From Escherichia coli (GTDB lineage Bacteria; Pseudomonadota; Gammaproteobacteria; Enterobacterales; Enterobacteriaceae): 64,000 bases of DNA. The stretch lies in the NCBI RefSeq assembly GCF_965641715.1, contig NZ_OZ282453.1. One strand, written 5' to 3'. Under the pieces are notes generated by a model. It made no database searches. It had not been told where the DNA came from and saw only the letters and a program-made list of their open reading frames with translations. Numbering within the stretch: position 1 is the stretch's first letter; every line of letters starts with the position of its first letter. Shown in pieces: positions 24,864 to 44,590 of this stretch. The translations under genes and the position numbers were made by a program.

Positions 24864-24886
24864 TAAGACAAAGGAGCAAAATTTTT

Positions 24887-25939
24887 ATGAATCTGGTGAT
24901 GTCAGATAATGCCCGTAACAAGCTGGGCTGCTACATGACGCAGCAGGCGTCGCTTAACAATATCCCGGTTTCTGCGCTGGTATCGCGATTTACCGTCAAT
25001 CCATCGGTACAACAGCGTTTTGAAAACGCTTCAAAGGAAAGTACCGAATTTACGAAAAGAATTAACGTAATCGGTGTAACTGACCAGAAAGGCGAAAAAG
25101 TTCTCCTGGACACCACCGGGCCGATTGCGCGCACGAATACCAGTTATGACGGCACAGATCGCCGTAATCCGATTAACGCTGTCGATATGAAGGCTCGTCA
25201 GTACCAGTGTGAACAGGTGAACTACGACACCTTTATTTCGTATCCGAAGCTTGATGCCTGGGCGGCTCACAGCGATTTTCAGTCGCGCATCAGCACACAG
25301 ATTGCCCGGCAGGTGGCGCTTGACCGCATCATGATCGGCTTTAACGGCACATCACACGCGGAAAAATCCAATTTCAGCACCAACAAGCTGCTTCAGGACG
25401 TTAACGTGGGCTGGCTGGAGCACATCAGAACCGATGCCAGTGAACGCGTAATGAATGACGTGACGCTGACTTCCCGCAACATGGACAACACCGTGGCGCA
25501 CGCGGGTAAGTATGCGAACGCTGATGCACTCGTACAGGACGCGCGCTCATCCCTGCTGGATGAATGGCACAAGGAAGCAGACGACCTCGTGGTGATTATG
25601 GGGCGCAACCTGTTTAACTCGCTGCGTCTGCCCGTTCTGAACAGCATCAGCGGCCAGAATCCCAATGCGGAATTACTCGCCGGACAGCTCATCCTGTCAT
25701 CGCGCACCATTGGCGGGCTGGATGTATTCCTTGCGCCGTTCTTCCCGGATGCAACGATGCTGATTACCTCATTCAACAACCTGTCAATTTACTGGCAGAG
25801 AGGCTCAATGCGTCGCCTGATGAAAGACGAGCCGGAATACAACCGCATCGCCACTTACCAGTCCATCAATGACGCTTATGTCGTTGAAGACTATGGCAAG
25901 TGCGCGATGGTCACTGGCCTGAAGTTCGCCGACAGCTAA
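24887..25939 (+). CDS. N: Major capsid protein (P2 gpN-like)
   Basis: FTVNPSVQQ..., IMIGFNGT..., VGWLE..., LSIYWQ blocks are colinear with gpN. Confidence 0.88.
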   Translation: MNLVMSDNARNKLGCYMTQQASLNNIPVSALVSRFTVNPSVQQRFENASKESTEFTKRINVIGVTDQKGEKVLLDTTGPIARTNTSYDGTDRRNPINAVDMKARQYQCEQVNYDTFISYPKLDAWAAHSDFQSRISTQIARQVALDRIMIGFNGTSHAEKSNFSTNKLLQDVNVGWLEHIRTDASERVMNDVTLTSRNMDNTVAHAGKYANADALVQDARSSLLDEWHKEADDLVVIMGRNLFNSLRLPVLNSISGQNPNAELLAGQLILSSRTIGGLDVFLAPFFPDATMLITSFNNLSIYWQRGSMRRLMKDEPEYNRIATYQSINDAYVVEDYGKCAMVTGLKFADS

Positions 25940-25984
25940 TCAACTCACGGCGGGCATCATGCCCGCCTGTAACGGAGAGAAAGA

Positions 25985-26785
25985 ATGATTACCCCTGCAC
26001 AGCAACACTGGCAGAACGTGATGGCGCAGCGCGCAGGCCGGGCGAATGAAGGCGTGGATCACGCCGCACGTACCGCGCATGAAGAGGTGCTGTATCGTCT
26101 GCGTCTGGCACAGGCCCGACTTAAGGGCGTACAGGCCAGAAGCGCCAAAGCCGCCATCAAAAAAGAGTTGTTACCGGACTTTTCTGGCTGGATTGAAGGA
26201 ACGCTGGAGGCTGACGGCGGGCAGCAGGATGAGGTGATTGCCACGCTGATGGTGTGGGCGATTGACTGTGGCGATCTTCCGCTGGCATTGCGTATTGGTG
26301 CGTATGTGGTCCGTCACAACCTCATCATGCCGGATAACTTTGGCCGTACTGCTGCCACAGTGCTGACCGAAGAAATCTGCAACCCGGTACTGACGCAGGC
26401 CGGGACGGATGCCGACGCGGATTTGTCCGCCTTTATCGAACCACTGGACACCCTCCGGGAGATTGTCACCGACCAGGATATGCCGGACGAAGTACGCGCC
26501 AAATTATGCAAGGCGTGCGCCTTTGCCCGCCGTGGCCTGAGCGATGCGGACAGCATGGCCCTGTCACTGAAGCTGCTGCGCGAAGCGATGCACCTGAACC
26601 CGAACGCAGGTGTGAAACGCGAGATTGCAACCCTTTCCCGCGCCCTGAAAAAAGCCGATTCCGCAGCCGCCCCAGATGACGCCAGCGCACAGCAGGCGCA
26701 GGACGAAAGCAGCAAAAGTAAAAAGACAACGCGGAAGCCTGCAACACGAAAAACCACCGCGACGCAGAAGGCGAAGCGCGTTTAA
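25985..26785 (+). CDS. M: Terminase small/endonuclease subunit (P2 gpM-like)
   Basis: DMPDEVRAKLCKA and AGVKREI blocks as in gpM; basic C-terminal tail. Confidence 0.85.
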   Translation: MITPAQQHWQNVMAQRAGRANEGVDHAARTAHEEVLYRLRLAQARLKGVQARSAKAAIKKELLPDFSGWIEGTLEADGGQQDEVIATLMVWAIDCGDLPLALRIGAYVVRHNLIMPDNFGRTAATVLTEEICNPVLTQAGTDADADLSAFIEPLDTLREIVTDQDMPDEVRAKLCKACAFARRGLSDADSMALSLKLLREAMHLNPNAGVKREIATLSRALKKADSAAAPDDASAQQAQDESSKSKKTTRKPATRKTTATQKAKRV

Positions 26786-26886
26786 CGACTGACCCCGTCA
26801 GCGGGCGGCGTGCACGGTGTTCCGGTTTGACTCCGTGACCGTTTACACCGCGCACCCACCGCCCGATTTTTTCAGGAGTGAACCCC

Positions 26887-27381
26887 ATGAGTATGGTTGC
26901 CAGAACCAACCCCGGCCCCGCAGAGGACGACATCACCGATACCGATGATGGTGATACCCGTATTTCAGCGGGCGCATTCTGGCCGGATATTGTGCTGCGT
27001 GAGCTGCGTCTGGCGATACGACTGCCGGGCCGTGTGACCACCTCCCGCCTGCTGCATACCGCCACCGGGGCCGTGGCACACGTTACCCGCGAGCTGGAAG
27101 CGTGGCAGCAGGAACAGCAGGCGGCTGGCCACCAGACGCTGGCCGATGTTCCGGCACCCGTAATTAACGGAGAAAGCGTCAATCTCTGGCACTGGCGCAA
27201 TGCCGTTTATACCGCCACACGCGCCCTGATTCTGGAGCGTTACCGCGATGCGGACACAACGGATAAGGGCGACCGCCGGGCGGACGCACTGGATATACAG
27301 ACATCGGATTTGTGGCGCGATGTGAGCTGGGCCATCTCTGACATTCTGGGACGACCGCGAATCTTTGCGGAGTTGTGCTGA
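26887..27381 (+). CDS. L: Head completion/stabilisation protein (P2 gpL-like)
   Basis: LADVPAPVINGESV...ERYRDADTTDKGDRRADALD...LWRDVSWAI resembles gpL; alternative GTG start at 26878. Confidence 0.8.
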   Translation: MSMVARTNPGPAEDDITDTDDGDTRISAGAFWPDIVLRELRLAIRLPGRVTTSRLLHTATGAVAHVTRELEAWQQEQQAAGHQTLADVPAPVINGESVNLWHWRNAVYTATRALILERYRDADTTDKGDRRADALDIQTSDLWRDVSWAISDILGRPRIFAELC

Positions 27382-27581
27382 TGAAAGTGAAGGCACTGGA
27401 AGGCGACACCGTGGATTCGCTCTGTTTCCGGTACTACGGCACGACGCAGGGCGTCACCGAAAAGGTGCTGGATGCCAACCCCGGACTCTGTCAGCAGGTA
27501 TTTCTGGACCCCGGGCAGGACGTGGAGATGCCGGAGCCGGAGAAGAAGAAACGAGAAATGATTCAGTTGTGGGGGGAGTAG
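27381..27581 (+). CDS. X: Tail protein X (LysM-like, P2 gpX-like)
   Basis: MKVKALEGDTVDSLCFRYYGTTQGVTEKVLDANPGL versus gpX; ATG overlaps the L stop (TGATG). Confidence 0.85.
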   Translation: MKVKALEGDTVDSLCFRYYGTTQGVTEKVLDANPGLCQQVFLDPGQDVEMPEPEKKKREMIQLWGE

Positions 27582-27583
27582 TA

Positions 27584-27907
27584 GTGAGCACTATTCAAAC
27601 AGGGATCACAGAGCAGGTTATTGCGTGGCTCTTTGACCACCTGCCAACGGTGTATGCAGCAGGCGCGGCAGTCAGCATTTCCGCGCTGATGAGTCTTTAT
27701 GACGGACGAACGCTGGTTCAGACCGTAACGGGATCGCTGGCGTGCGGCGTTCTTGCCATGGCCGTGGCCGGGTCGTTGCGCTTCTTCGGAGTTCCTGAAG
27801 ATGCCGTGACGTTTTTCGGCGCATCTATCGGTTTTATGGGCGCAGAAAAAGCACGCGACAAGATCATTGCCGCCTTTAACCGCATAACCCAAAAGGGAGA
27901 TGAATAA
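27584..27907 (+). CDS. Class I holin, lambda S-like (not P2 Y-like)
   Basis: GTG 27584 follows ggggggag; ~107 aa, multi-TM; GRTLVQTVTGSLACGVLAMAV...FGASIGFMGAEKARDKI is colinear with lambda S. Confidence 0.7.
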   Translation: MSTIQTGITEQVIAWLFDHLPTVYAAGAAVSISALMSLYDGRTLVQTVTGSLACGVLAMAVAGSLRFFGVPEDAVTFFGASIGFMGAEKARDKIIAAFNRITQKGDE

Positions 27908-28507: not shown

Positions 28508-28547
28508 CCTCATGAACTGCAACAAGTGAATAACGAGGACAACAACC

Positions 28548-29015
28548 ATGCTGAAAACTGATTCCCTGCGTGAAGCCATGACCCGTTCATGCCGATGGTG
28601 TCAGGCCAACCCGGAAAAATTCACCATTTTCGTGGAGAGCGGCAACATTGAAACGACCGGAGAAACGCCCTCGTTTGTTTACCGCTATCAGATGGTGATG
28701 TTTGTCATGGATTACGCCGGAGAGCTGGACGACCTCACGCTGCCGCTGCTGGCGTGGTTATCCGAAAATCAGCCACAGTTGTTGCTTAATCCGGAGTGTA
28801 ATCAGGACATCAAATTTTCCGCCGTTATCAATGACGATGACAGCGCCGATCTCCTGTTTACGCTCCCCCTGCGGGAACGCGTTCGCATCACGCGCAACAG
28901 TCAGGGGACACCGCAGGCAGAACACCTGCCGGAGCCAAAACCCCGCCTGCCCTCCTCCGAAGGCGACTGGTCGCATGTATTCCAGGATGTGACGTGGGGT
29001 GAAAGCGATGGATAA
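28548..29015 (+). CDS. R: Tail completion protein (P2 gpR-like)
   Basis: MLKTDSLREAM..., LPLLAWLSENQP versus gpR MLKPDSLRRAL..., VPVLAWLRENQP. Confidence 0.85.
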   Translation: MLKTDSLREAMTRSCRWCQANPEKFTIFVESGNIETTGETPSFVYRYQMVMFVMDYAGELDDLTLPLLAWLSENQPQLLLNPECNQDIKFSAVINDDDSADLLFTLPLRERVRITRNSQGTPQAEHLPEPKPRLPSSEGDWSHVFQDVTWGESDG

Positions 29016-29643
29016 GGCATTCACCCGCGTGGATGAAACCTTTGAGGCCATCCGCGACAGCCTGAATCAGCAGGCCATCAATAACATCGCCAGAAAGCTG
29101 GCACAGGATTTACGCCGCGCCCAGCAGGCGCGCATCCGGTCACAGAAAGCGCCGGACGGGACCGCATGGACACCACGCAGACGCCGCGTAACCCGGATAC
29201 AGGAGCGCATTCGCTTTATCTGGAATAACGAAGCACGCACGCTGAAAAACTGGCATCACGACACGGGGAAATACGGGCGAACCATCACCGGGTGGGATGA
29301 GGATAAAAACAGCATCCGCACGTTTTACCGGGATGACATCGACCGCTTTCTGGAAATACGCACCCGGCGCATCAACCAGGACAGCACCAGGCGCGTCCCC
29401 ATGTTCGTAAAACTGCGCACCGCCCGCTACCTGAAAGCCCGTGCAGATGCTTCCGGTGTGACGGTGGGTTACAGCGGCGTGGCCGCACGTATTGCACGCG
29501 TTCATCAGTTCGGTGAGCGCGATCAGGTTGCGCCGGGCATTTTCACCGATTACCCGGTACGTGAGCTGCTGGGTATCAGCCAGGCAGATGAGCGCCTGAT
29601 TTATAACACGGTGCTGGGCCGGATTGCGGAGGCTGTACGGTGA
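29008..29643 (+). CDS. S: Tail completion / virion morphogenesis protein (P2 gpS-like)
   Basis: Position after R; ATG 29008 overlaps the R stop. Confidence 0.7.
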   Translation: MDKAFTRVDETFEAIRDSLNQQAINNIARKLAQDLRRAQQARIRSQKAPDGTAWTPRRRRVTRIQERIRFIWNNEARTLKNWHHDTGKYGRTITGWDEDKNSIRTFYRDDIDRFLEIRTRRINQDSTRRVPMFVKLRTARYLKARADASGVTVGYSGVAARIARVHQFGERDQVAPGIFTDYPVRELLGISQADERLIYNTVLGRIAEAVR

Positions 29644-30221
29644 GCGCAGAACTCATGCGGCTACTGAGCAATATCATCCGCACCGGGATCATCTCTGAAG
29701 TTGATGAGAAGTCCTGGCGCGTGCGCGTTCGCAGCGGCGAACTGGAAACAGGCTGGTTGCGCTGGAACACCACGCGCGCGGGAGCCTTCAATGTGTGGCT
29801 GCCGCCATCACCAGGCGAACAGGTGGTCATTGCCTGCATTGGCGGCAACCCGGAAACCGCCATGATAATTGGCAGCCTGTGGAGTGATGCCATTCCGGCC
29901 CCAGGCAAAAGCCTGAAAGAAATCGTGGTCAGCGCGCCGGATGGCGCGGTGTTCCGCTACGACGCAGACGCAGGCGCACTGAGCGCCAGCGGCATGAAAA
30001 CGGCCACCCTGCAGGCATCCGTCAGTGTGACACTGGACACGCCTGTCGTGGAATGCACAGACCTTCTGAGAACAGCGACGCTTGACGTCACAAAAGGGGG
30101 AAAGATGAGCGGCAATATCACGCACAGCGGCGGCGATTTCACCTCAAACGGCATCACAGTGCATACGCATAAACACGGTGGCGTTAAAGGTGGCAGCGAT
30201 TCGACAGGAGGCCCGCAGTGA
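29640..30221 (+). CDS. V: Baseplate central spike (P2 gpV-like)
   Basis: 193 aa; GTGA overlap with S; C-terminal HTHKHGGVKGG apex motif. Confidence 0.85.
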   Translation: MSAELMRLLSNIIRTGIISEVDEKSWRVRVRSGELETGWLRWNTTRAGAFNVWLPPSPGEQVVIACIGGNPETAMIIGSLWSDAIPAPGKSLKEIVVSAPDGAVFRYDADAGALSASGMKTATLQASVSVTLDTPVVECTDLLRTATLDVTKGGKMSGNITHSGGDFTSNGITVHTHKHGGVKGGSDSTGGPQ

Positions 30222-30568
30222 CAACCCGCTACACAGGAATGAACCCGGACGGGACGGGAAACCTGAACGATATGGAGCACCTGAAACAGTCAGTCAGGGA
30301 CATCCTGATCACCCCGCTGGCAAGCCGGGTTATGCGACGGGAATATGGCAGCCTTGTGCCTGATTTAATTGACGAACCCATGAATAACACCACGCGTCTG
30401 CAATGCATGAGTGCTGCCGTGATTGCACTGACGCGATGGGAACCCCGCATTGCCCTGGATGCCATCGACGTTGTCTGGAAAGCAGGAGGCCGCGCCGGGG
30501 TGACGCTGTCGGGTACTGTCATGCAGACCATGCAGAATGTTGAATTAACCATCACGCTGAGGGAGTAA
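30218..30568 (+). CDS. W: Baseplate wedge protein (P2 gpW / gp25-like)
   Basis: 116 aa; SVRDILITPLASRVMRREYGS GPW/gp25 signature. Confidence 0.85.
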   Translation: MTTRYTGMNPDGTGNLNDMEHLKQSVRDILITPLASRVMRREYGSLVPDLIDEPMNNTTRLQCMSAAVIALTRWEPRIALDAIDVVWKAGGRAGVTLSGTVMQTMQNVELTITLRE

Positions 30569-30571
30569 ATC

Positions 30572-31468
30572 ATGCCTGCCGTTGACCTTTCCCAGTTACC
30601 GGAACCCGCCATCATCGCGGAGCCTGACTTTGAAGCAATTCTGGCTGACACAAAGGCCATGATGATTGCGGCTTATCCCGCCGAACAGCGTGAAGCCGTC
30701 TCCGCCGCGCTGGAGCTGGAATCGGAACCCCTGAACGTTATCGCTCAAACCATGTCGTTTCGTGAAATGCTGTTACGCCAGCGGGTTAACGAGGGCGCAC
30801 GCGCCTGCATGTTGAGCCACAGCACCGGAACAGACCTGGACAACCTCGCGGGCAATATGAACACAAAGCGCCTGGTTATCACTCCGGCAACGGATACCAC
30901 CGACGCGGTGATGGAGAGCGACACCTCGCTGAGACTGCGGGCGCAACGGGCGTATGATGGTCTGAGTGTTGCTGGCCCGTCAGGCGCATACGAGTATTTT
31001 GCACGCAGCGCCAGCGGTCTGGTGCGCGATGCGCGGGCCATCAGCCCGTCTCCGGCCAACGTGACGGTTTCCATCCTGTCCACTGAGGGCGACGGCACAG
31101 CAACGGAGGCGTTGCTTAATACCGTTCGCGCCGTTCTGAATGCAGAGGATACCCGCCCGGTGGCCGACCGCCTGACCGTACAGAGTGCCAGAATCGTGAC
31201 ATGGCGGCTGAATGCAAAACTGTACTTTTACCCCGGCCCGGAATCCGAACCTATTCTGGCGGCGGCTGAATCGTCGTTCAGGAAGTGGCTGGCTGAGCAG
31301 GGGCTTATCGGTCAGGACGTGGCGTTGTCCGCCATTGCTGCCGCACTGCATGTGCACGGTGTGCAACGCGTGGAGATAATCGAACCCACACAGAATCTGG
31401 CCATCAGCGACATACAGGCGGCGCGCTGTGAGTCATTCACCATCAGCGAAGGTGGGCGCAATGAGTAA
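30572..31468 (+). CDS. J: Baseplate wedge protein (P2 gpJ-like)
   Basis: 298-aa ORF in V-W-J-I order. Confidence 0.85.
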   Translation: MPAVDLSQLPEPAIIAEPDFEAILADTKAMMIAAYPAEQREAVSAALELESEPLNVIAQTMSFREMLLRQRVNEGARACMLSHSTGTDLDNLAGNMNTKRLVITPATDTTDAVMESDTSLRLRAQRAYDGLSVAGPSGAYEYFARSASGLVRDARAISPSPANVTVSILSTEGDGTATEALLNTVRAVLNAEDTRPVADRLTVQSARIVTWRLNAKLYFYPGPESEPILAAAESSFRKWLAEQGLIGQDVALSAIAAALHVHGVQRVEIIEPTQNLAISDIQAARCESFTISEGGRNE

Positions 31469-31991
31469 TTCACTGTTACCGCCATCAGCCAGCCGTTTCA
31501 TGCGTTGCGCCGAAGCTGTCGGAGCGCGCATTACAGACATCCCGGTAGACCTCAACACGCTGTGGTCACCGGACACCTGCCCGGTGCATTTGCTGCCTTA
31601 TCTCGCCTGGGCATTTTCCGTTGACCGCTGGGATCGCAACTGGCCGGAAGAGACAAAGCGACAGGTGATTCGTGATGCATGGCTGATACACCGACACAAA
31701 GGGACCATCAGCGCACTGCGCCGGGCCATTGAGCCGCTGGGATACCTCATTCGCGTGTCTGAGTGGTGGGAGTTCGACGGAGAACCGGGAACATTTACCG
31801 TTGAAGTCGGCACGCTGGACAGTGGCGTGACGGAGGAAATGTATCTGGAAATGGAGCGGTTGATTGCTGATGCCCGCCCGGTCAGCCGCCACATGACAGG
31901 GCTGAATATCATTCAGGAGATCCCGGGAGATATTTTCGCGGCGGCAGCAACTTACGACGGTGAAGTCATTACCATTTATCCGGACGATTAA
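31461..31991 (+). CDS. I: Baseplate/tail protein (P2 gpI-like)
   Basis: 176 aa from ATG 31461 (ATGAGTAA overlap with J). Confidence 0.8.
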   Translation: MSNSLLPPSASRFMRCAEAVGARITDIPVDLNTLWSPDTCPVHLLPYLAWAFSVDRWDRNWPEETKRQVIRDAWLIHRHKGTISALRRAIEPLGYLIRVSEWWEFDGEPGTFTVEVGTLDSGVTEEMYLEMERLIADARPVSRHMTGLNIIQEIPGDIFAAAATYDGEVITIYPDD

Positions 31992-31993
31992 GC

Positions 31994-34288
31994 ATGAGTA
32001 CCACAACACGAAAATTTAAAACCGTTATCACCGATACGGGTGCAAAAAAATTAGCTCAGGCAGCCGCGCCAGATGGTAAGCCTGTCCGCCTGACTCATAT
32101 GGCCGTGGGCGACGGTGGCGGCACGTTGCCCACACCAGACAGTAAGCAGACCCGTCTGGTGCATGAGGTGTGGCGACACACTGTTAATCGCGTCATCCTG
32201 GACGCAACACATCAGAACCGCATTATTGCGGAGCTGGTTATTCCTCCAGAAACGGGCGGATTCTGGATCCGGGAAATTGGTGTGTTTGATGAGCACGGCG
32301 ATTTAATCGCAGTAGGCAATACTGCCGAAAGTTACAAGCCAACCGTTGCCGAAGGGTCAGGACGTGCACAAACATTTCGCACCATTCTGACCGTATCCAG
32401 CACTGCCACCGTGGCGCTTACCGTGGATAACACCATGGTAATGGCCACAGTGGATTACGTGGATGACAAACTGAAAGAGCATGAACACTCACGACGTCAC
32501 CCGGACGCCTCGCTGACCGCAAAAGGCTTTGTTCAACTTAGCAGCGCCACTAACAGCACGTCTGAAACGCTTGCGGCAACGCCAAAGGCTGTTAAGGCGG
32601 CATATGACCTGGCTAATGGCAAATACACCGCACAGGACGCTACCACTGCGCGAAAAGGGATAGTTCAGCTCAGTAGCGCCACCAACAGCACGTCTGAAAC
32701 GCAGGCTGCAACGCCGAAAGCAGTAAAGGCCGCGTATGACCTTGCTAACGCAAAATATACCGCTCAGGACGCCACGACGGCACAAAAAGGGATAGTCCAG
32801 CTCAGTAGTGCCACCAACAGCACGTCTGAAACACTGGCCGCGACATCGAAAGCGGTTAAGGCGGTAATGGATGAAACGAACAAGAAAGCGCCCTTAAACA
32901 GTCCTGCGCTGACCGGAACGCCAACAACGCCAACTGCGCGACAGGGAACGAATAATACCCAAATCGCAAGCACGGCTTTCGTTATGGCTGCGATTGCCGC
33001 CCTTGTAGATTCGTCACCTGACGCACTGAATACGCTGAACGAGTTAGCGGCGGCGCTGGGAAACGACCCGAATTTTGCGACCACCATGACTAACGCGCTT
33101 GCGGGTAAGCAACCGAAAGATGCCACCCTGACGGCGCTGGCCGGGCTTGCTACTGCGGCAGACAGGTTTCCGTATTTTACGGGGAATGATGTCGCCAGCC
33201 TGGCAACCCTGACAAAAGTCGGGCGGGATATTCTTGCGAAATCGACCGTTGCTGCCGTTATCGAATACCTCGGTTTACAGGAAACGGTAAACAGGGCTGG
33301 TAACGCCGTGCAAAAAAATGGCGATACTTTGTCCGGTGGGCTTACTTTTGAAAATGACTCAATCCTTGCCTGGATTCGAAATACTGACTGGGCGAAGATT
33401 GGATTTAAAAATGATGCCGATGGTGACACTGATTCATACATGTGGTTTGAGACAGGCGACAACGGCAATGAATATTTCAAATGGAGAAGCAAACAAAGCA
33501 CCACAACAAAAGACCTGATGAATCTTAAATGGGATGCTTTGTATGTTCTTGTTAAAGCTCTTTTCAGCAGTGAAGTAAAAATATCGACAGTCAATGCACT
33601 GAGGATATTTAATTCATCTTTTGGTGCCATTTTTCGCCGTTCTGAAGAATGCCTGCATATCATCCCTACACGAGAGAATGAGGGGGAAAATGGTAATATA
33701 GGGCCACTACGTCCCTTTACGCTTAATCTCAGAACTGGCCGCATAACTATGGGGCATGGTCTGGATGTTACAGGAGATATAACAACTAACGCCTGGGTGT
33801 ATGCAAACAGGTTTGCTATTAATAGTGGCTCAACCTCATGGATTGATATGCGAAACCAGAATGTCATTTTTGGTAGAAACGCAGTATCAACAAGTTCTGC
33901 GCAGGCTTTGTTAAGACAAGACCATGCAGAACGCAAATTTTTTGTCGGTGGACTTGGTAACTACCAGTTTGGTTTTTACATGATTAATAACTCAAGGACA
34001 GCCAATGGCACCGATGGTCAGGCGTACATGGACAATAACGGTAACTGGCTTTGTGGCTCGCAAGTTATTCCTGGCAACTATGGCAATTTTGATTCCAGAT
34101 ATGTGAGAGATGTTCGCCTGGGTACGCGAGTTGTTCAATTGATGGCGCGTGGTGGTCGTTATGAAAAAGCCGGACACGCAATTACCGGATTAAGAATCAT
34201 TGGTGAAGTAGATGGCGATGATGAAGCCATCTTCAGGCCAATACAAAAATACATCAATGGCACATGGTATAACGTCGCACAGGTGTAA
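31994..34288 (+). CDS. H: Tail fibre protein (P2 gpH-like N-terminus fused to a Mu S / P1 S-type invertible C-terminus)
   Basis: 764 aa; 3 x 44-aa fibre repeats; crossover site at 33258-33283; C-terminal ...FRPIQKYINGTWYNVAQV. Confidence 0.9.
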   Translation: MSTTTRKFKTVITDTGAKKLAQAAAPDGKPVRLTHMAVGDGGGTLPTPDSKQTRLVHEVWRHTVNRVILDATHQNRIIAELVIPPETGGFWIREIGVFDEHGDLIAVGNTAESYKPTVAEGSGRAQTFRTILTVSSTATVALTVDNTMVMATVDYVDDKLKEHEHSRRHPDASLTAKGFVQLSSATNSTSETLAATPKAVKAAYDLANGKYTAQDATTARKGIVQLSSATNSTSETQAATPKAVKAAYDLANAKYTAQDATTAQKGIVQLSSATNSTSETLAATSKAVKAVMDETNKKAPLNSPALTGTPTTPTARQGTNNTQIASTAFVMAAIAALVDSSPDALNTLNELAAALGNDPNFATTMTNALAGKQPKDATLTALAGLATAADRFPYFTGNDVASLATLTKVGRDILAKSTVAAVIEYLGLQETVNRAGNAVQKNGDTLSGGLTFENDSILAWIRNTDWAKIGFKNDADGDTDSYMWFETGDNGNEYFKWRSKQSTTTKDLMNLKWDALYVLVKALFSSEVKISTVNALRIFNSSFGAIFRRSEECLHIIPTRENEGENGNIGPLRPFTLNLRTGRITMGHGLDVTGDITTNAWVYANRFAINSGSTSWIDMRNQNVIFGRNAVSTSSAQALLRQDHAERKFFVGGLGNYQFGFYMINNSRTANGTDGQAYMDNNGNWLCGSQVIPGNYGNFDSRYVRDVRLGTRVVQLMARGGRYEKAGHAITGLRIIGEVDGDDEAIFRPIQKYINGTWYNVAQV
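32519..32890 (+). repeat. Three tandem 132-bp (44-aa) tail-fibre repeats
   Basis: KG(F/I)VQLSSATNSTSET-AAT-KAVKA-YDLAN-KYTAQDATTA repeats starting at 32522, 32654 and 32786. Confidence 0.85.
33258..33283 (+). repeat. Left recombination site (gix/cix-like)
   Basis: ttatcgaatacctcggtttacaggaa; close to the remembered gix sequence TTATCCAAAACCTCGGTTTACAGGAA. Confidence 0.8.
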
Positions 34289-34819
34289 ATGATGCAGCAT
34301 TTAAAAAATATTAAGTCTGGAAATCCTAAAACGAAAGAACAATATCAGCTAACAAAGAATTTTGATGTTATCTGGTTATGGTCCGAAGACGATAAAAACT
34401 GGTATGAGGAAGTGAAAAACTTTCAGCCAGACACAATAAAGATTGTTTACGATGCAAATAATATTATTGTCGCCATCACTAAAGATGCCTCCACGCTTAA
34501 CCCTGAAGGTTTTAGCGTCGTTGAGGTTCCTGATATTACAGCCAACCGCCGCGCTGATGATTCAGGAAAGTGGATGTTTAAGGATGGAGCTGTAGTTAAA
34601 CGGATTTATACGGCAGACGAACAGCAACAACAAGGCGAATCACAAAAGGCCGCATTGCTTTCCGAAGCTGAATCAGTCATCCAGCCGCTGGAACGCGCTG
34701 TCAGGCTGAATATGGCAACAGACGAGGAACGCACACGACTGGAAGCATGGGAACGCTACAGTGTTCTGGTCAGCCGTGTGGATACGGCAAATCCTGAATG
34801 GCCACAAAAGCCTGAATAA
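34289..34819 (+). CDS. G: Tail fibre assembly chaperone (P2 gpG / Mu U-like), expressed orientation
   Basis: 176 aa, directly follows H. Confidence 0.85.
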
Positions 34820-34847
34820 AAATTAAGGCCCGCGATCGGGCCTTGTC

Positions 34848-35381
34848 TCATTCAGGTTGTTCGGGAAATGTTACTGGCAGGCTGGAGGTGTCTGTAGATT
34901 CGACTTTCTGCGCATAGAGCATCCACTCGGTTAATTTTTGTTTATTCTCGTCGGAAATGATGCCCAGCCGTAGCTGTGAGTCCCATAGCTGGGTTTTATC
35001 CCTAACGAGCTGTAGCAGGCTTTGCTTTTCATTTTCCGCCTGCTGCCTCTGCTCTTCCTCGGTATAAGTTCGCTTTACCACTACGCCATCTTTGAACATC
35101 CATTTACCAGAAATATCAGCCCGGCGATTTGCTGTAATATCAGGAACCTCAACGACGCTTGCGCCTTCTGGATTAATTGCTGAAACATCCTTTTCAATAC
35201 AAATAATAACGTTGTTGTGGTCATAGACCATTTTCAACGTATCAGGCTGAAAGTTCTTTTGTTCCTCATACCAGTTTTTCCCATCCTCTGTATAAAGCCA
35301 TTTGATGTTAAATTGTTTCGTTAGCTGGTATTGCTCTTTTGTTTTAGGGTTGCCAGCAGTAATATTTTTTAAGTGCATCAT
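34848..35381 (-). CDS. Alternative tail fibre assembly chaperone (U'-like), silent orientation
   Basis: 177 aa; N-terminal ~110 aa nearly identical to 34289..34819; divergent C-terminus. Confidence 0.85.
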
Positions 35382-35383
35382 AA

Positions 35384-36335
35384 TTAAATACTCCCCGCGT
35401 TATACCACGTCCCATTAATGCAATACTGAATTGGCCTTGCCTGAGTTGTATCAATTAATTCATCACGGTTTCCGTTAACTGAACCCGTAACGACATAACC
35501 TGACCTGTCAGACCAGCCGGGACCATTCCATGTCTGAACAGATGACAGACCGCCAAGGCGAATACCTGTAATAAACCTTGAGTTACATTCTGCCTGCGTG
35601 TATGCACCAACATCTCCCGCAGAGGGTTTGCGGGTCGTGGTGTAAAACTCTGACCAGTTAGCCTCAAATCCATAACCATCACGCGCTGAACGATAAAAAA
35701 TACCGCCGTTCCTGTAATTCACGCGGAACTGTACAGCAGGGCAGCTCCCCGTATTCATATTGAAGTGGAGGATTAATGTCGATGCACCGCTGATATCTGC
35801 ATCATAAACACCGCTATTCCAGTTCCAGCCAACAGCTTTATCATTTGCAACCCTGCTTCCTGTTTGCCCTAAAGCAAATGCAGGCTGCTGGTTTTTCGTG
35901 TTGTAGTCTCTTCGCCAGCCAGGAGCATAAGCATCACCATGATTAATATAAGTGAATTGAGCGTTAGAGGTGCCGCCTCCGGTGGAAGTGCTTGGTGTTG
36001 TTACACGGATGGTCATGGCACCTTTATTACCCATAACCTCAATAACGCAACCTGCAAGATGAATAGTTCCACAGCCAGTATCGGTAATAATTTTATTATT
36101 GCCGTATGACCATGAACATTTGCACATCCAGTATGGGTGATTGAATGCCCCTTGAGAATCCAGCCATTCAATCAATTGTGCCGTTGTCCAGTTCCCTGCC
36201 CCTGTACTAATAGCACTGTGAAAAGCGCGACATGCACCAATATTTTTTGTGAAGGTATCTTTTCCTGGAATATCTGCGCCGTTCTGGTTTTTCTGTAATG
36301 CGCCAGAAGCCTGATTTACCGTTTCTTGTAAACCG
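35384..36335 (-). CDS. Alternative tail-fibre C-terminal segment (S'-like), promoterless and start-less in this orientation
   Basis: Open frame runs from the crossover centre (36335/36336) to the stop at 35384; after inversion it joins the H frame as ...[29 protein letters not shown]... Confidence 0.8.
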
Positions 36336-36348
36336 AGGTTTTAGATAA
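36323..36348 (-). repeat. Right recombination site (gix/cix-like)
   Basis: ttcttgtaaaccgaggttttagataa, the inverted copy of 33258-33283. Confidence 0.8.
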
Positions 36349-36402
36349 TGGCCGTTTCTGACCTGCATGGCATGATTTACGCTTTTGGACGGGAGATTCA
36401 GC

Positions 36403-36990
36403 GTGCTGATTGGCTATGTAAGGGTATCAACAAATGACCAGAATACAGACCTGCAACGAAACGCTCTTGTTTGTGCAGGATGTGAACAAATATTTGAAGA
36501 TAAATTAAGCGGGACAAAGACAGACCGACCGGGATTAAAACGCGCTTTAAAGCGTCTTCAAAAAGGTGACACGCTGGTTGTCTGGAAACTGGATCGCCTC
36601 GGGCGAAGCATGAAACATCTGATTTCTCTCGTCGGGGAACTACGGGAGCGAGGGATTAATTTTCGCAGTCTGACCGACAGCATAGATACATCTTCTCCAA
36701 TGGGGCGTTTTTTCTTCCACGTGATGGGTGCCCTGGCTGAAATGGAACGTGAATTAATTGTTGAACGTACACTGGCCGGACTGGCAGCAGCGCGCGCACG
36801 GGGGCGCACAGGCGGACGTCGCCCGAAGCTGACAAAAGAACAGCATGAGCAAATAGCAAGGCTGATTAAAAACGGTCACGACAGAAAACAACTGGCAATA
36901 ATTTACGGCATTGGTACATCGACGATTTATCGTTACCACCCCGCAGGAGAATCAAGCGGAGCAATAGAGAAGAGTCAGAAAACAAAATAA
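36403..36990 (+). CDS. Serine DNA invertase (Gin/Cin/Hin/Pin family)
   Basis: (GTG)LIGYVRVSTNDQNTDLQRNAL..., catalytic Ser, C-terminal HTH; GTG 36403 follows gggag. Confidence 0.9.
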   Translation: MLIGYVRVSTNDQNTDLQRNALVCAGCEQIFEDKLSGTKTDRPGLKRALKRLQKGDTLVVWKLDRLGRSMKHLISLVGELRERGINFRSLTDSIDTSSPMGRFFFHVMGALAEMERELIVERTLAGLAAARARGRTGGRRPKLTKEQHEQIARLIKNGHDRKQLAIIYGIGTSTIYRYHPAGESSGAIEKSQKTK

Positions 36991-37017
36991 CCGCTAATCT
37001 GACCATTAGCGGTTTTT
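36989..37017 (+). terminator. Intrinsic terminator after the invertase gene
   Basis: aaccgctaat / attagcggtt stem followed by a T run. Confidence 0.7.
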
Positions 37018-37025
37018 GTGTTAAA

Positions 37026-37520
37026 TCAGAACAGCCCTTTAACTGAACTGGCCGCGCTGTTAAGAGATGATGTCACCTTATCTTTGAAGCCGGACAGCAT
37101 ATCGCTGAACGATGAGGATTGCAGGCGCTCCCGCAAATCCTCATCACAGCGTTCAAGGGTCAGTGAAAATTCTATCTTTTTCGCCTTACCGTAGCGATCA
37201 AACTCGGAACGGGTCGTATTCGTTCCGGTCAGGACATACATGCCGTAAATCTGCCCGACACCATCAATCAGAGGCCAGGGGCGTCCTGTATATGCCTGCG
37301 TGGTCAGCAACGAAAGCGACACTTCGCCACCTGTAATTTCAGGATAAAGCACACCAGAAAGAACGATGCGATCATCGCCTGCCCCGATATACTGCCAGCT
37401 TGCTGAACGGTTAACGCGTTCATTTTTCACATGCCGCCAGCTTTTGTTTTGCTGTAACTGCTGATGCGGCAACGTGCGCAGCTCAAAAACAAACATGCCG
37501 TAGATCATCATCATGGCCAT
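37026..37520 (-). CDS. U: Tail protein (P2 gpU-like)
   Basis: FVFELRTLPHQQLQQNKSWRHV...LSGVLYPEITGG versus gpU FVFMLRTVPYQELQYQRSWRHV. Confidence 0.85.
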   Translation of the reverse strand: MAMMMIYGMFVFELRTLPHQQLQQNKSWRHVKNERVNRSASWQYIGAGDDRIVLSGVLYPEITGGEVSLSLLTTQAYTGRPWPLIDGVGQIYGMYVLTGTNTTRSEFDRYGKAKKIEFSLTLERCDEDLRERLQSSSFSDMLSGFKDKVTSSLNSAASSVKGLF

Positions 37521-37526
37521 GACTCC

Positions 37527-40334
37527 TCAATCTTTATCGTAAAAACTGCCACGCCCGGCACGGGCGCGCCGTTCCATTTCTGCCCTGACCATTTCACCGA
37601 CCAGTTTCGCCAGTTCGCGGGGATTCTGCGTAACAACGTTATGCAGATGAACATGAATTTCACCACCAAATCCGGAGGCAACAGGCTCCCGGTTACGGGA
37701 AGTTACAGGAACTGATGCCACTGGAGATCGTATGGCCTCCGCCACCGGGCGGGAGCTGGCCGCAACAACAGGGACCAGCGCCGGAGGCAGCGGAGCCGGG
37801 ACCACGGGGGTGATATTAATTGCGGGGGCAGGCTTACTGACCTGCGCAATCTTCCGCTCCTGCCACTCCCCACGAACAGCAAGTGCGCGGGGCAGGTTCT
37901 TAAAGACAATATCGCCGGGGCCAATGCGTTTTTTCGTCTCATCAACCAGCTTACCTGTGTTATCAGCAATTTTGCTGAGTCTGCGTAGCGTCCCGGTATT
38001 GCTGTCTGTGAGCGGTTTATTGTCTTTGGGGTTATCACCTCCGGTGCCATTGCCATTTTCCACAGGCTTCGGCGGATTGATTTTCGCCAGGTCCCCCTGA
38101 AGCAAGGCAACCTTGTCCTGAAGAATGGCCGCACGCTGTGCGTCTTCGATTTTCTTTCTCGCCCTTTCCGCTTCATCCGGAAGCACACCGAGTTTTTCAA
38201 GTATCCACGCCAGCGTATCCAGCAGCATTTTTGCAGGCGTCAGAACAAGCTGTAGCGCGCCACCAAGAACGTTACCGAATATCTCGCCAGCACTGGTACA
38301 TTTATCCAGCGTTTCCTTGCTGGACTCCATCGGTGACAGCAGCGATTTAAACCAGTTAAAGAGCTGAATAATCCCATCGCGCACGACATCAAAAACAGGA
38401 CCAAACCGTTCAAAGGTTTCGCGCAACGGAGCCAGCCGTTCCATAATTCCACTGAACACCCCGGCATAAAACGCCTTGATGGGTTCCCAGTATTTCCAGA
38501 TGAGAACCGCCGCAGCCACAAACGCGGCAACAATCAATCCGACCGGACTGAACAGCGCCCCGATAGCGCCACCCAGCAACGAGATGGAACCTGTTACCAT
38601 TCCCCATAGTGCTGGCAGCACCCTGACGACATTCATTGATCCGGTCAGGAGAGAAAAACCAAGACGTAACGTGGCCAGTTTCCCGTGAAGCACGCCAATA
38701 ACCAGCGACAACGAGCCAATCGTTGCAGTCATTGCCAGCAACGCACCGCCTGCTATCAGTAGCTGGCGCGTCAGTGCCGGATGGGCCTGCGCCAGCGCCG
38801 TCACCCTTGATACCACCCGCGTGAGCCACTGCGTGACAGAACGCAGCGGGCCGTCAATCAGATCTGCAATGCGGATGCGCAACCCTTCCCATGCACTGCC
38901 GAGTGATTTCAGATCGCCGTCAAGGTTGTTGGCCATAACCTTTGCTGTGCGTTCAGCCTCACCGCGCGCGCCTTCAAGTTCTTTTCTCAGTTTAGGTAAG
39001 GAACCGTCACCCGCTGCATCAACGAGCGCCATAAACGATGTGAAAGCCTCTTCTCCGGCAATGTCCTTAAAGAACGATACCCGGTCAACTTCCCCGTATT
39101 TGCGGGTGGCTTTATAAAGGTCGGCCAGCACATCCTCCATCGGGCGCATTTTGCCGTTCGCGTCAGAGACTGCCACACCAAGCTCTTTCAGCGCCTCTGC
39201 TGCCGCCTTTGGCGGTGATGCAAGACGAGCCAGGCTGGCACGCATTGCCGTCCCGGCATCACTTCCCCTGATACCCATATTCGCCAGCACGCCCGCCATC
39301 GCTGCGGCCTGCTCCAGCGATATTCCCAGCTTGCCCGCCACCGGACCTGCATATTTCATGGTTTCGCCCAGTGCGCGAAGGTCAGTGTTGGTACGGGTAA
39401 ACGCTGCGGTGAGCGTGTCACCGACCCGGTCCATCTGGTCAGCAGAAAGGCCGAACTGCGTCAGGATATTTGAGCCAATATCTGCCGTCTCGCCGAGATC
39501 CATACCGCCAGCCGTTGCCATGCTCAGCACTCCGGGGAGCGCAGCCTGAATGGCCTGCGGTGTGAAGCCAGCCATTGCAAGAAATGCCTGCCCACTGGCG
39601 GCATCGCCTGCGGTGAACTGCGTTTCAGAGCCAAGTTTTAACGCCTGCTCACGCAGCGCCTTAAACTGCGGGCTGTTCTGGTCGATTCGCGTCAGCGCCT
39701 GAACGCGGGACATCTCTTTGCCGAACCCGATCGCGGGCTGCAAAAAACGCCCGGCAGCATAGCCGCCCGCCGCTGCCGCACCAATTGCCAGCGCACCACC
39801 TGTTTTCAGTTTTCCCGCGGTTTCCTGCGCGCGCGAATACCGCTCACGCGCCCGCGTTACACGCGCAAGCGCCTGCCGTTCGCGTTCAAGCTGGTTGTTG
39901 TACTGTTCGGTGCGTCTGATGGCCTGCTGGATGGTGTTATCGCTGCCTGTCAGGGAAATGCCGTGGCGTTTCAGCTCTCCGCCAAGTTCCCGCATTTTCT
40001 GAATTTCCCGTGTGCGCGATTCATTCAGGCGTTCAAGCCGGGTGCTTAACTGCTGCATCAGCTTTTGTTGTTTTTCGCTGAGCACTGTACCCGTGCGTTG
40101 TAACTGATTAAGAGCGTTAAGCTGGCGTCGTGCTTTCAATATGCCAGCATCCGCTTTACTGACAGCGTCACGGGCGCGCTCAAATGAACGCGCCTGACGC
40201 TCGAGATTTTTGATCGCCCCCTGCGTTCGCTGGATGGAGTCACCAAACTGCCCCATCAGGCGGCGGGCGTTTTCGGCAGGCCGGGTCAGCCTGTCAACGG
40301 CGCTGAAAGCGACCCGGATATCAAGAGTCTTCAT
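37527..40334 (-). CDS. T: Tail tape-measure protein (P2 gpT-like)
   Basis: ~935 aa, coiled-coil plus TM-rich middle; ATG 40334 follows gggaa. Confidence 0.85.
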   Translation of the reverse strand: MKTLDIRVAFSAVDRLTRPAENARRLMGQFGDSIQRTQGAIKNLERQARSFERARDAVSKADAGILKARRQLNALNQLQRTGTVLSEKQQKLMQQLSTRLERLNESRTREIQKMRELGGELKRHGISLTGSDNTIQQAIRRTEQYNNQLERERQALARVTRARERYSRAQETAGKLKTGGALAIGAAAAGGYAAGRFLQPAIGFGKEMSRVQALTRIDQNSPQFKALREQALKLGSETQFTAGDAASGQAFLAMAGFTPQAIQAALPGVLSMATAGGMDLGETADIGSNILTQFGLSADQMDRVGDTLTAAFTRTNTDLRALGETMKYAGPVAGKLGISLEQAAAMAGVLANMGIRGSDAGTAMRASLARLASPPKAAAEALKELGVAVSDANGKMRPMEDVLADLYKATRKYGEVDRVSFFKDIAGEEAFTSFMALVDAAGDGSLPKLRKELEGARGEAERTAKVMANNLDGDLKSLGSAWEGLRIRIADLIDGPLRSVTQWLTRVVSRVTALAQAHPALTRQLLIAGGALLAMTATIGSLSLVIGVLHGKLATLRLGFSLLTGSMNVVRVLPALWGMVTGSISLLGGAIGALFSPVGLIVAAFVAAAVLIWKYWEPIKAFYAGVFSGIMERLAPLRETFERFGPVFDVVRDGIIQLFNWFKSLLSPMESSKETLDKCTSAGEIFGNVLGGALQLVLTPAKMLLDTLAWILEKLGVLPDEAERARKKIEDAQRAAILQDKVALLQGDLAKINPPKPVENGNGTGGDNPKDNKPLTDSNTGTLRRLSKIADNTGKLVDETKKRIGPGDIVFKNLPRALAVRGEWQERKIAQVSKPAPAINITPVVPAPLPPALVPVVAASSRPVAEAIRSPVASVPVTSRNREPVASGFGGEIHVHLHNVVTQNPRELAKLVGEMVRAEMERRARAGRGSFYDKD

Positions 40335-40850
40335 TGTCTGTATTCCCGCTGCGAAGTGCCGCCCGCTCACGCCAGCTAACCACTTCGCCGGGAGTCATCA
40401 TGAAGATTTCGGCGGGCGACCAGTTAAAAATGGCGGCAATATCCGCCACAAAGTCTTCTATGTGCTCAAAGCACACAACCGTGATCAGGCTTCCGTCGCC
40501 TGTTCGTTCTTCCCGCCAGAGTCCGCACCGCTCAAAAAATTTACGGCAACCACACATAACTGAATAAAGTCACGGGATGCCATTTTTTTGATCGTCACTT
40601 CATCCAGTCGCGGTGATGTCACGCGTGACAGCAGCGTAAACATGGATTCCGCTTTCAGATTCAGCACATCAGACAGCGACAAATCTCGCAGAGATCCAGC
40701 CTGCTCAATAGCCCCGGTGATCTCCACATACGTGATTTTTTCGCCGCCTCGCTCAATTGGTTGGGTAAGTTTTACGCCACGCTCACTGGTTTCTTTCACA
40801 GTGTCAGTAACTACCGTGTTTTCGGTATCGATGTTTTTCGTCTCTTTCAT
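40321..40850 (-). CDS. gpE+E' -1 frameshift fusion chaperone
   Basis: T TTT TTG heptamer (complement of 40533..40539) in the E zero frame; the -1 frame is open to 40321 (ORF 40321..40557). Confidence 0.7.
40485..40850 (-). CDS. E: Tail assembly chaperone (P2 gpE-like)
   Basis: 121-aa ORF between FII and T; contains the slippery TTTTTTG. Confidence 0.8.
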   Translation of the reverse strand: MKETKNIDTENTVVTDTVKETSERGVKLTQPIERGGEKITYVEITGAIEQAGSLRDLSLSDVLNLKAESMFTLLSRVTSPRLDEVTIKKMASRDFIQLCVVAVNFLSGADSGGKNEQATEA

Positions 40851-40904
40851 CAGGAAACTCCTTTCAGTCAGAGGCGACGCACTGCGCCGCCTGCATATTA
40901 CTTA

Positions 40905-41417
40905 TCAGCCAAGCCCAAGCGCGGAACGGATACGGTCAGGCACAATGTCCTTGCCGTCCTTCCGGTAGATGAAGTTCAGCAGGTCAATCTCCCACAACGG
41001 GCGATCGTTAACACTCAGCTTGTAGTAGGTGTTTTTAATGGCGTAAGTGTGTGATGTGGCTTCGCCCTGTTTGGCTTCCCCCATATCAATTTCCGTCACA
41101 CGTCCGCGCATTTCGACTTCATACAGGTCGCTTTCTGCATCGGTGTAGTATTCACCCGCAAAACGCAGCAGCGTGCCGTCAATCGTGCCGCCATACTTAA
41201 GGAACAGCTCACGAACTGCGCCCCCCATGACAAAGCTCGCATCAAGCGCGGAGTCGTCCAGACCGAGATCAATACTTACCGCACCCATCATGCCGCCACC
41301 CCGGTAGCTGTCGGTTTTGCGCGTCAGCTTAGGCAGAGTGACGGACGTCACCTTACCCACTTCGTTTTCACCATCCACAAACAGCGTAAAAAAGCGAAGA
41401 TGTTTTGGCACAGCCAT
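40905..41417 (-). CDS. FII: Tail tube protein (P2 gpFII-like)
   Basis: 170 aa, follows the sheath gene. Confidence 0.85.
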   Translation of the reverse strand: MAVPKHLRFFTLFVDGENEVGKVTSVTLPKLTRKTDSYRGGGMMGAVSIDLGLDDSALDASFVMGGAVRELFLKYGGTIDGTLLRFAGEYYTDAESDLYEVEMRGRVTEIDMGEAKQGEATSHTYAIKNTYYKLSVNDRPLWEIDLLNFIYRKDGKDIVPDRIRSALGLG

Positions 41418-42601
41418 CAGGCACCTCCCAGCACCGCAAATGCGGGTTCAAAGTATTCATCAGTAAACGTCTGGTAAAGCTCCATGTCTTCCAGTGGCGG
41501 AACGGGCGTATATTTGTAGCGAATACGCACGCGCCCCTGACGTAAATCCGTGGTGCTGTTATCCACCACGTCATACCAGCACTCCGCGCCAATCAGTTTC
41601 CCGGCAGTAACCAGTGAATCCAGTTTTGCCCTGATGGCACTGATAACATCCTTCACGTTCGCAGGCGTCAGTGGACTGTCGATGGTTTCAAACTGCGCTT
41701 CCGCAATTGAATCAGCCAGCACCTGTGCGGTTCGGGTATACACCTCAAAGATGTAGGCGTTCGTTTCCGGTGTGCGGTTGCCCCAGAAGCGGAACCCGTT
41801 GCGACGAATAATGGTCGTGATTTCTTTGTTGTTGAGGCTGTTGGCATCGCTGTCTTCGGCCTGCAACGACCAGAACACATGCTTCGACATCCCCAGCACA
41901 TTTTTAACCGGAACGTTGGACAGTGATTTGTGCCACCCCTGCTCATGGTCAATGTACGCACGAAGGCCGCACGCATAGGCAGGTGCGGGGAACGTTTCGT
42001 TTTTGCCACTTTTCGGGTTGTAGGCGATGAAGTCCGGCCATAAGAGCATCACCTCACGTTCGTTGAATTTCTGGCGGTAGGTAATCGCCTCAGCCATCGT
42101 GTTACAGCCGTGACATGAGGCATACACAAACGCGCGCAGTTTACCCGCAATCACGCACAGGGATTTTGTTACAGCCTCCGTGTCCAGCTCCGGCGCGGCC
42201 AGAATACGCGGACGGTATCCGATGCTTTCATCCTGCTCTGCAACAAGCAGCGCATACATCCCCGTATAGCTGCCGTCAGATTCAGAACCACCGATAACCA
42301 GTTGATCCTGCGTCTTTCCGTCTTCTTCTTTGTGTTCAGCCACGCGAACGACGATCACCTTTGTGCTCACCTGGTCTGCGATGGCCTTAAGCGCACGATA
42401 AAGCGTCCCCGTTGTCCCGCATTTTCCCAGCACGTCATTGACGCGGGTCAGCAGTGTGGGCTTGTTCAGCGGGAACAGCTTCGCGTCCGCATCATCCGCC
42501 GTTGCCACGATACCGATAACGCTGGAATCAACATCGTTAATCGCTGTTACCAGGTCGGTATTTTCCGTAACACGGGCACCATGAAAACGAGTTTCACTCA
42601 T
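41417..42601 (-). CDS. FI: Contractile tail sheath protein (P2 gpFI-like)
   Basis: 394 aa, size and order as in P2. Confidence 0.88.
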   Translation of the reverse strand: MSETRFHGARVTENTDLVTAINDVDSSVIGIVATADDADAKLFPLNKPTLLTRVNDVLGKCGTTGTLYRALKAIADQVSTKVIVVRVAEHKEEDGKTQDQLVIGGSESDGSYTGMYALLVAEQDESIGYRPRILAAPELDTEAVTKSLCVIAGKLRAFVYASCHGCNTMAEAITYRQKFNEREVMLLWPDFIAYNPKSGKNETFPAPAYACGLRAYIDHEQGWHKSLSNVPVKNVLGMSKHVFWSLQAEDSDANSLNNKEITTIIRRNGFRFWGNRTPETNAYIFEVYTRTAQVLADSIAEAQFETIDSPLTPANVKDVISAIRAKLDSLVTAGKLIGAECWYDVVDNSTTDLRQGRVRIRYKYTPVPPLEDMELYQTFTDEYFEPAFAVLGGA

Positions 42602-42758
42602 AGCTTCAGCCCCTTGTATCCGTTAAATGATTCGGCAACAATCATCACCCACCACGCGCGTAATCTCACCCCTGCGCCGTTCTCCCGCCACGGCGACAAC
42701 AAAAAGCAGTAACCCCCTCCGCACGCACATGCGACCATGCCGCACAGGGAGGGAGCAG

Positions 42759-43868: not shown

Positions 43869-43910
43869 GCAACTTAGAATAGCGGCAGCACCACGTTAAG
43901 GGAGGTCGCT

Positions 43911-44171: not shown

Positions 44172-44259
44172 CAGGCAGAATTGCCGGAGTAACAAAAAAG
44201 CGATAGATTACGCGCGGGTGCCTTTCGGCTGATGGTCGGAGGGAATACCCGAAGGCCAG

Positions 44260-44503: not shown

Positions 44504-44512
44504 GATAACCGC

Positions 44513-44534: not shown

Positions 44535-44590
44535 AATCGGTTGCTAAGGTTGGTCGAAACGGCATCCTATCTCACAGACATGAACAACAA

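Follow-up and report, generated by a model that had tools for sequence, protein, structure and literature searches.

A probable Gin-family inversion switch for the tail-fiber tip in a P88-like, P2-family prophage of Escherichia coli

Site-specific DNA inversion by the Gin, Cin, Hin, and Pin systems has been textbook material since about 1980. Related invertase systems include Fin of the P2-like Fels-2 prophage of Salmonella and Pin of e14. The horizontal exchange of tail-fiber modules among P2, P1, and Mu, together with the Fin invertase of the P2-like Fels-2, was reportedly described between 1992 and 2006. In P2-like prophages of enteropathogenic E. coli (EPEC), inversion was found by sequencing and PCR, with both orientations coexisting in cultures (Goldberg et al. 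2014, PMC4272514). The locus analyzed here lies in a window of 64,000 nucleotides (nt) of E. coli (contig NZ_OZ282453.1 of assembly GCF_965641715.1), in which the tail-fiber gene H of a P2-family prophage runs into a segment bounded by two inverted crossover sites. The segment holds two alternative fiber tips, each followed by its own chaperone gene, and a serine invertase gene stands just outside it. The locus was read as a functional Gin-family DNA inversion switch that chooses the receptor-binding tip of the tail fiber in a P88-like (Xuanwuvirus, P2-family) prophage, and this reading was given a probability of roughly 0.93. At the level of sequence comparison, the architecture, the in-frame fusion of the alternative tip, and the natural occurrence of both states were demonstrated. 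A preliminary description made from the DNA letters had proposed a host-range switch like Mu G and P1 C, and this was supported by cassettes that are 88 to 99% identical in amino acids (aa) to the S/U and S′/U′ proteins of Mu and P7.

The crossover sites are a pair of inverted 26-bp sequences. The left, gix-like site, TTATCGAATACCTCGGTTTACAGGAA, occupies positions 33258 to 33283 on the plus strand, with its central TC at 33270-33271. It lies inside the H reading frame at ...AAVIEYLGLQE, as had been stated and as the listing of open reading frames (ORFs) bore out. The right site is found at 36323 to 36348 on the minus strand; its reverse complement is TTATCTAAAACCTCGGTTTACAAGAA, and its central dinucleotide is at 36335-36336. 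The two sites match each other at 23 of 26 positions, with the central TC in both, and each matches Mu gix at 24/26, in agreement with their earlier placement in the gix/cix family. The longest unbroken identity between them is 13 nt, ACCTCGGTTTACA, at site positions 10 to 22 within the 26-bp core, and the repeat finder stretched the pair to an inverted repeat of 65 nt at 77% identity (I2). The chaperone genes form a second inverted repeat, of 361 nt at 70% (I1). From one crossover center to the other, the segment is 3,067 bp long, a small correction to the 3.1 kb given before, which holds for the 3,091 bp between the outer site ends.

When inversion of 33270-36336, that is, between the central dinucleotides, was simulated, the result was an uninterrupted H of 742 aa, compared with 764 aa in the window. 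The minus-strand frame had been predicted to join H in phase. It is open from 36334 to the stop at 35384, and the intact fusion product confirmed the prediction. The outer half of the right site has a TAA in the tip 2 frame, and this half remains outside the segment after inversion.

A degenerate site pattern allowing up to three mismatches retrieved exactly two sites in the 64 kb and none in 100 shuffles. No further crossover site was found in the window at this threshold, and a search with the 11-nt core gave only a chance-level match at 51328. These counts bear on whether the locus might be a multisite shufflon offering a choice of three or more tips, as in Min of p15B or the three-site EPEC P2-like prophage. 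Such systems do occur in P2-like prophages (PMC4272514), and relatives of the locus have other tip types at the same sites. However, the window holds only two sites, the core search returned nothing else near the locus, and the segment contains just two tip ORFs and two chaperones, which makes a shufflon extremely improbable.

The H gene, full length in the window at 31994 to 34288 on the plus strand, encodes 764 aa made up of a constant part and tip 1. The constant part (Hc), of about 425 aa (31994 to 33269, plus strand), has a P2-type baseplate-attachment domain at its N terminus and continues with three fiber repeats of 44 aa. In Pfam it matched Phage_tail_fib, a P2-type tail-collar N-terminal domain, at aa 6-153, and Phage_fiber_2 three times. 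The full-length protein is 95.9% identical to H of phage P88 across all 764 aa. Its residues 1-170 are 64.6% identical to P2 gpH, so the P2 gpH N-terminus named in the preliminary description stands. Its view of a graft does not hold as a one-off event, since the layout is standard in P88 and in many E. coli prophages. Residues 180-430 match the constant part of P7 S (Sc) at 57.7% identity. Because the similarity to P1/P7 and Mu fibers thus starts well upstream, the mosaic joint was placed upstream of the crossover site rather than at it.

The Phage_fiber_2 repeats of Hc correspond to three tandem units of 132 nt (44 aa) at window positions 32521-32916 (D1). Four relatives (L004, L007, L008, and L010), with H proteins of 698-712 aa, align as if they had one repeat fewer, and the length of the fiber shaft therefore appears to vary with repeat copy number.

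Tip 1, of 338 aa (33272 to 34288, plus strand), is currently fused to Hc and is therefore the expressed tip, as had been proposed for the region 33271-34288. Identity to P7 Sv′ is 97.0% and to Mu S 66%; the solved structure of Mu S, 5YVQ, was matched with E = 6.6e-139. Tip 2, of 316 aa (35384 to 36334, minus strand), has no in-frame start codon close to the site and would be silent until inversion. It is 88.4% identical to Mu S′v and 88.6% identical to the C terminus of P7 S, and it matched PDB entry 8JU3 (Mu S/S′) with E = 2.1e-195. The two tips are unrelated to each other apart from the last ~70 aa, which are 38% identical. Their dissimilarity, together with the matches to the distinct Mu S and Mu S′ structures, suggests that the two orientations would differ in adsorption specificity.

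The serine DNA invertase, of 195 aa, is encoded at 36403 to 36990 on the plus strand, outside the invertible segment. The GTG start at 36403, which lies 55 bp outside the right site as described earlier, proved to be the same start as that annotated for Mu gin, which also begins with GTG. Over its first 120 nt, the gene matches Mu gin at 118 of 120 positions. The Pfam domains Resolvase (171.7 bits) and HTH_7 (51.8 bits) were both recognized over their cut-offs, and the protein is 99.5% identical to the P88 invertase, 85.6% identical to Gin, and 74% identical to Cin. Over residues 1-120 it agrees with Gin at 118/120 positions; Ser9 is present, and the N terminus reads VLIGYVRVSTNDQ. Against the Gin structures 4M6F and 3UJ3, E values around 1e-100 were obtained. 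A Q-x-x-R-L motif in helix 1 of the DNA-binding domain and basic residues of helix B are specific to Fis-dependent invertases and contact Fis and the enhancer (McLean et al., PMC3798978). By alignment, these Fis-contact features are kept here, with HEQIARL opposite EQAGRL of Gin and an identical helix-B sequence, GLKRALKRL.

The DNA is nearly identical to that of Mu over a stretch that starts with the right site and continues 215 nt into the invertase gene (alignment A1). This stretch includes the presumed Fis-dependent recombinational enhancer at 36421 to 36488, in the 5′ end of the invertase gene, which corresponds to nt 19-86 of the gene, the span annotated as the enhancer in P7 cin. The putative enhancer is identical to Mu gin at 68/68 positions and to P7 cin at 51/68. 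It begins about 85 bp from the right crossover center; for comparison, hixL of Hin lies about 100 bp from the proximal Fis site (PMC3798978).

Evidence that the segment inverts was obtained from natural variants. Among 5,426 complete E. coli genomes, 800-nt queries for the two junctions located Hc-tip 1 in 353 and the simulated Hc-tip 2 in 124. Two contigs with identical invertase, L007 and L008, are 99.8% identical, and their sole difference is inversion of the segment. The sites of L007 are identical to both sites of the window. In L008, the inner half-sites, distinguished by a G/A difference at site position 23, have traded places, and the outer halves have stayed as they were, with their differences at positions 6 and 9. 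The exchange can thus be mapped to the interval from site position 9 to position 23, which contains the central dinucleotide. The inverted order was also found in L004 and L005, which are chromosomal P88-like prophages. In both, window positions 34235-36352 align in reverse, and the flanks are colinear up to the repeat, on the left to 33295 and on the right from 36308 (L004) or 36267 (L005). The comparison indicates that the segment inverts by exchange within the sites.

An exact-sequence look-up in NCBI identified the 764-aa H of the window as WP_435658624.1 and the simulated postinversion H of 742 aa as WP_435658627.1, each on one contig. Since the exact product expected after inversion is present in NCBI, the window's own allele appears to have been recorded in the other state as well. 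The outcome that the preliminary description would have taken as refuting, a single orientation throughout, did not arise: both were seen across public genomes.

Differences in orientation could also be generated without the invertase, either by RecA-dependent homologous recombination at the inverted repeats or by assembly errors. The inverted repeat at the sites does reach 65 nt at 77%, the chaperone genes provide a repeat of 361 nt at 70%, and short-read assemblers do break or misjoin at repeats. However, the longest identity between the sites, at 13 nt, is far too short for efficient exchange by RecA, the L007/L008 exchange maps to the site core (positions 9-23), and an inversion bounded by the longer chaperone repeat was seen in no relative compared. 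Misassembly is countered by the presence of the inverted state in complete, long-read-level chromosomes. An origin of the observed orientations in RecA or in assembly errors was accordingly held to be highly improbable, and inversion by the invertase is favored.

A further, independent line of evidence came from short-read data. Three independent Logan contigs, L011, L012, and L013 (from ERR10391717, SRR25478011, and ERR14867472), begin at the equivalent of window position 36327. This is the first base common to both orientations, because at 36326 the right site has T and the left site, once reverse-complemented, has C. Reads of mixed orientation would give exactly this branch point, as could the presence of another related prophage in the genome. 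In practical terms, the switch breaks up short-read assemblies at the site.

Several observations weigh against a switch that is still functional. Only 22/41 residues of the DNA-binding domain of the invertase are identical to those of Gin, and two outer-half positions of the left site depart from Mu gix. Between the right site and the GTG at 36403, a consensus scan found no sigma-70 promoter, and inspection by eye revealed only poorly spaced hexamers. The two exact H isoforms in NCBI could stem from two coresident copies of the prophage rather than from one locus in two states. Ongoing switching in the source strain is suggested by comparison rather than by the strain's own reads. Finally, the junction counts of 353 and 124 genomes are confounded, since the terminal 400 bp of Hc turn up in other elements too (such as 48-kb plasmids) and tip variants escape megablast.

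One rival reading is a frozen relic, with sites, cassettes, and invertase gene inherited from a Mu- or P1-like ancestor and a segment that no longer flips in this prophage. The changed left site and the missing consensus promoter would suit such a relic, as would the single orientation in the window. Against it stand the occurrence in NCBI of a fusion protein that this allele should yield only once inverted and the inversion that separates L007 from L008, which have identical invertase and, in L007, the sites of the window. The conservation of the parts points the same way: the catalytic domain agrees with Gin at 118/120 residues, the enhancer span with Mu at 68/68 positions, and all four cassette ORFs are intact. 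The relic was thus judged very unlikely, and a functional Gin-family switch remains the preferred reading.

With regard to the plasmids, a junction of the terminal 400 bp of Hc with tip 2 was also observed at 96.5% identity on plasmids of 47-49 kb in several strains (H51-H59), an example being the 48.5-kb NZ_CP009073.1 of E. coli ATCC 25922. These plasmids with the same fiber module are presumably phage-plasmids, and they inflate the junction counts.

The late operon V-W-J-I-H reads into the constant H segment, which ends in the 26-bp gix-like site. Exchange at the central TC of both sites flips the segment, so that H continues in frame into the other tip, with its own chaperone behind it. For the reaction itself and its consequences, the following course can be proposed, each step being modeled on the established biochemistry of Gin, Hin, and Cin. 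Low-level production of invertase from the gene just outside the segment would supply two dimers at the sites, which, together with host Fis bound at the presumed enhancer, which falls within the gene's first ~90 bp, would assemble an invertasome. Cleavage by Ser9, a 180-degree rotation of subunits, and religation would then follow. A culture of the lysogen would hold both orientations, and induction would release two kinds of particles with different lipopolysaccharide (LPS) receptor specificities. The two tip types would thus amount to bet-hedging on host range.

The preliminary description had also placed a chaperone behind each tip, the two sharing the N terminus and differing in the C terminus, and this proved accurate. 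Chaperone 1, a U-type tail-fiber assembly chaperone at 34289 to 34819 on the plus strand, has the same orientation as tip 1 and matched the Pfam family Caudo_TAP with E = 1.3e-36. It is 99.4% identical to P7 U′ and 94.3% identical to Mu U. Chaperone 2, of the U′ type, at 34848 to 35381 on the minus strand, matched Caudo_TAP with E = 4.1e-37, is 98.3% identical to Mu U′, and would be silent in the present orientation. The two proteins, of 176 and 177 aa, have 89 of the first 120 aligned positions in common and only 16 of the last 58.

Two terminator-like hairpins accompany the module. The first, at 34825 to 34844 between the convergent chaperone genes, is G+C-rich, with eight pairs, six of them G-C, and has a good T-run on the minus strand only. 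It probably acts as a transcription stop for the cassette facing the H promoter, and we infer such a role in the present orientation. The second, at 36989 to 37014 between the invertase gene and the convergent gpU gene, has a 10-pair stem with a T-run on both strands, which would fit a two-way terminator; it was also recorded as inverted repeat I4.

The G+C content of the tips and chaperones is 42.5 to 46% and that of the invertase gene 48%, compared with 53.5% for the rest of the prophage and 54% for Hc (33272-36990 versus 10000-31990). The low values are consistent with a different origin of the switch module.

The same sites and a similar invertase but different tip sequences were observed in L004, L005, L006, and L009. 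In L004 and L005, the differing tip regions lie at locus positions 7427-8150 and about 9500-10300. The window region 33296-34078 is without a match in L004, L005, L007, and L008, and window positions 35883-36322, next to the right site, are replaced by about 200 bp in L006 and L009 (about 6224-6420 in L009). Whole cassettes thus seem to have been exchanged at the sites among relatives. Site deletions that would have locked the orientation in L004, L005, L006, and L009 were considered and rejected, as the sites (in L006 and L009, the right site) are present with one or two substitutions.

The prophage as a whole appears complete, with integrase (9952-10974, minus strand), gpA, terminase, portal, P2-family capsid, V-W-J-I-H, gpU, tape measure, tube, sheath, and gpD. 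On one side it adjoins the pheA leader directly (Phe_leader at 9660-9785 and pheA at 8478-9638). On the other, homology to P88 stops at 44626, and an ORF for an N6/N4 DNA methylase is next, at 44895-45701. No att repeats of at least 14 nt were found between 9600-10100 and 43800-45200. In the early region, Rfam matches to isrK (14118-14192, 65.9 bits) and to C4 antisense RNA (14228-14315, 87.1 bits) lie side by side on the plus strand. C4 is the immunity RNA of the P1/P7 type. The surrounding chromosome is of E. coli or Shigella type. In the host flank, the rluD-yfiH-clpB region is 99.4% identical to E. coli; the RyfD small RNA lies at 49055-49193 just upstream of clpB, and a complete rRNA operon was also recognized (16S at 52189-53730, tRNA at 53816-53888, 23S at 54085-56988, and 5S at 57083-57198).

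The tail genes FI (sheath), FII (tube), E, T (tape measure), and U are located at 37026-42601 on the minus strand, opposite to H, whereas gpD follows on the plus strand at 42627-43868. P88 and every relative compared retain the flipped FI-U block. The suggestion that the flip is an old by-product of the invertase was unsupported, with no gix-like remnant at the borders near 37000 and 42600.

The presence of the switch has consequences for the use of such sequences. Host-range work on P88-like phages should reckon with it. The predicted H protein varies with the orientation that an assembly captured, and annotation pipelines call the silent tip a partial or pseudo "tail fiber protein." The combination of a P7-type Sv′/U′ cassette with a Mu-type S′/U′ cassette on a P2-type shaft is perhaps an uncharacterized pair of receptor specificities, and the gix-type site could serve as a portable joint for swapping tip cassettes among Mu-, P1-, and P2-like phages. 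The latter idea comes from the relatives with other tips at the same sites and from the G+C content of the switch, which is below that of the rest of the prophage. Both proposals are tentative and on balance rather unlikely.

Among described systems, the closest is phage P88 (KP063541/NC_026014; Xuanwuvirus P88, Peduoviridae). The H-to-invertase block at 31994-37000 is 93.5% identical to P88 in nucleotides over 100% of its length, and window positions 23283-27884 and 28517-44626, about 20.7 kb, align to it at 95.4 to 95.7%. Both share one gene order, with the FI-U tail block again lying opposite to H. For these features, the P88 annotation already lists a DNA invertase along with two tail fiber proteins and two tail fiber assembly proteins. 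The differences are allelic only; in the right site, for example, a single base separates TTCCTG of P88 from TTCTTG of the window. By nucleotide similarity and gene order outside the early region, the prophage is assigned to Xuanwuvirus. Inversion is not discussed in the paper describing P88 and its host range (PMC5285337). At least 80% of the H-to-invertase block was found in one colinear place in 58 complete E. coli genomes.

The P2 genome (AF063097) has the same operon order, V-W-J-I-H-G, but a single H, a single G, and no invertase, with fun(Z) standing where the silent cassette and the invertase are found here. Its FI-FII-E-T-U-D genes are all on the H strand. The invertible part of the window alone is 91 to 95% identical in nucleotides to the P7 C segment and to the Mu/D108 G segment. 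The Mu G segment with Gin (S/U, S′/U′, gixL/gixR, and the sis enhancer) has the same architecture, with boundaries 3,060 bp apart compared with the 3,067 bp measured here. Mu differs in having an Sc of 170 aa, in place of the P2-type constant H part of 425 aa, and in being a transposing phage rather than a P2-family prophage. In the P1/P7 C segment with Cin, the enhancer is annotated at the 5′ end of the invertase gene in P7, the same gene position as here. However, the P7 C segment is about 4.0 kb, its variable parts are longer, and cin is located on the other side of the segment. The cix sites of P1/P7, with their TTGG core and AGAGAA arm, are also unlike those of the window.

Set beside the present locus by description, the P2-like prophage loci of EPEC E2348/69 also represent a serine-invertase switch in a P2-family E. 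coli prophage, one of them with three sites and four variants compared with the two sites found here (Goldberg et al. 2014, PMC4272514). The switch is therefore already known as a type, its arrangement having been annotated in P88 and inversion in P2-like E. coli prophages having been demonstrated in 2014 (PMC4272514). Judged from the sequences, its relation to the Mu G and P1-P7 C switches is one of homology, not analogy, and the locus is a true member of the Gin-family tail-fiber switches.

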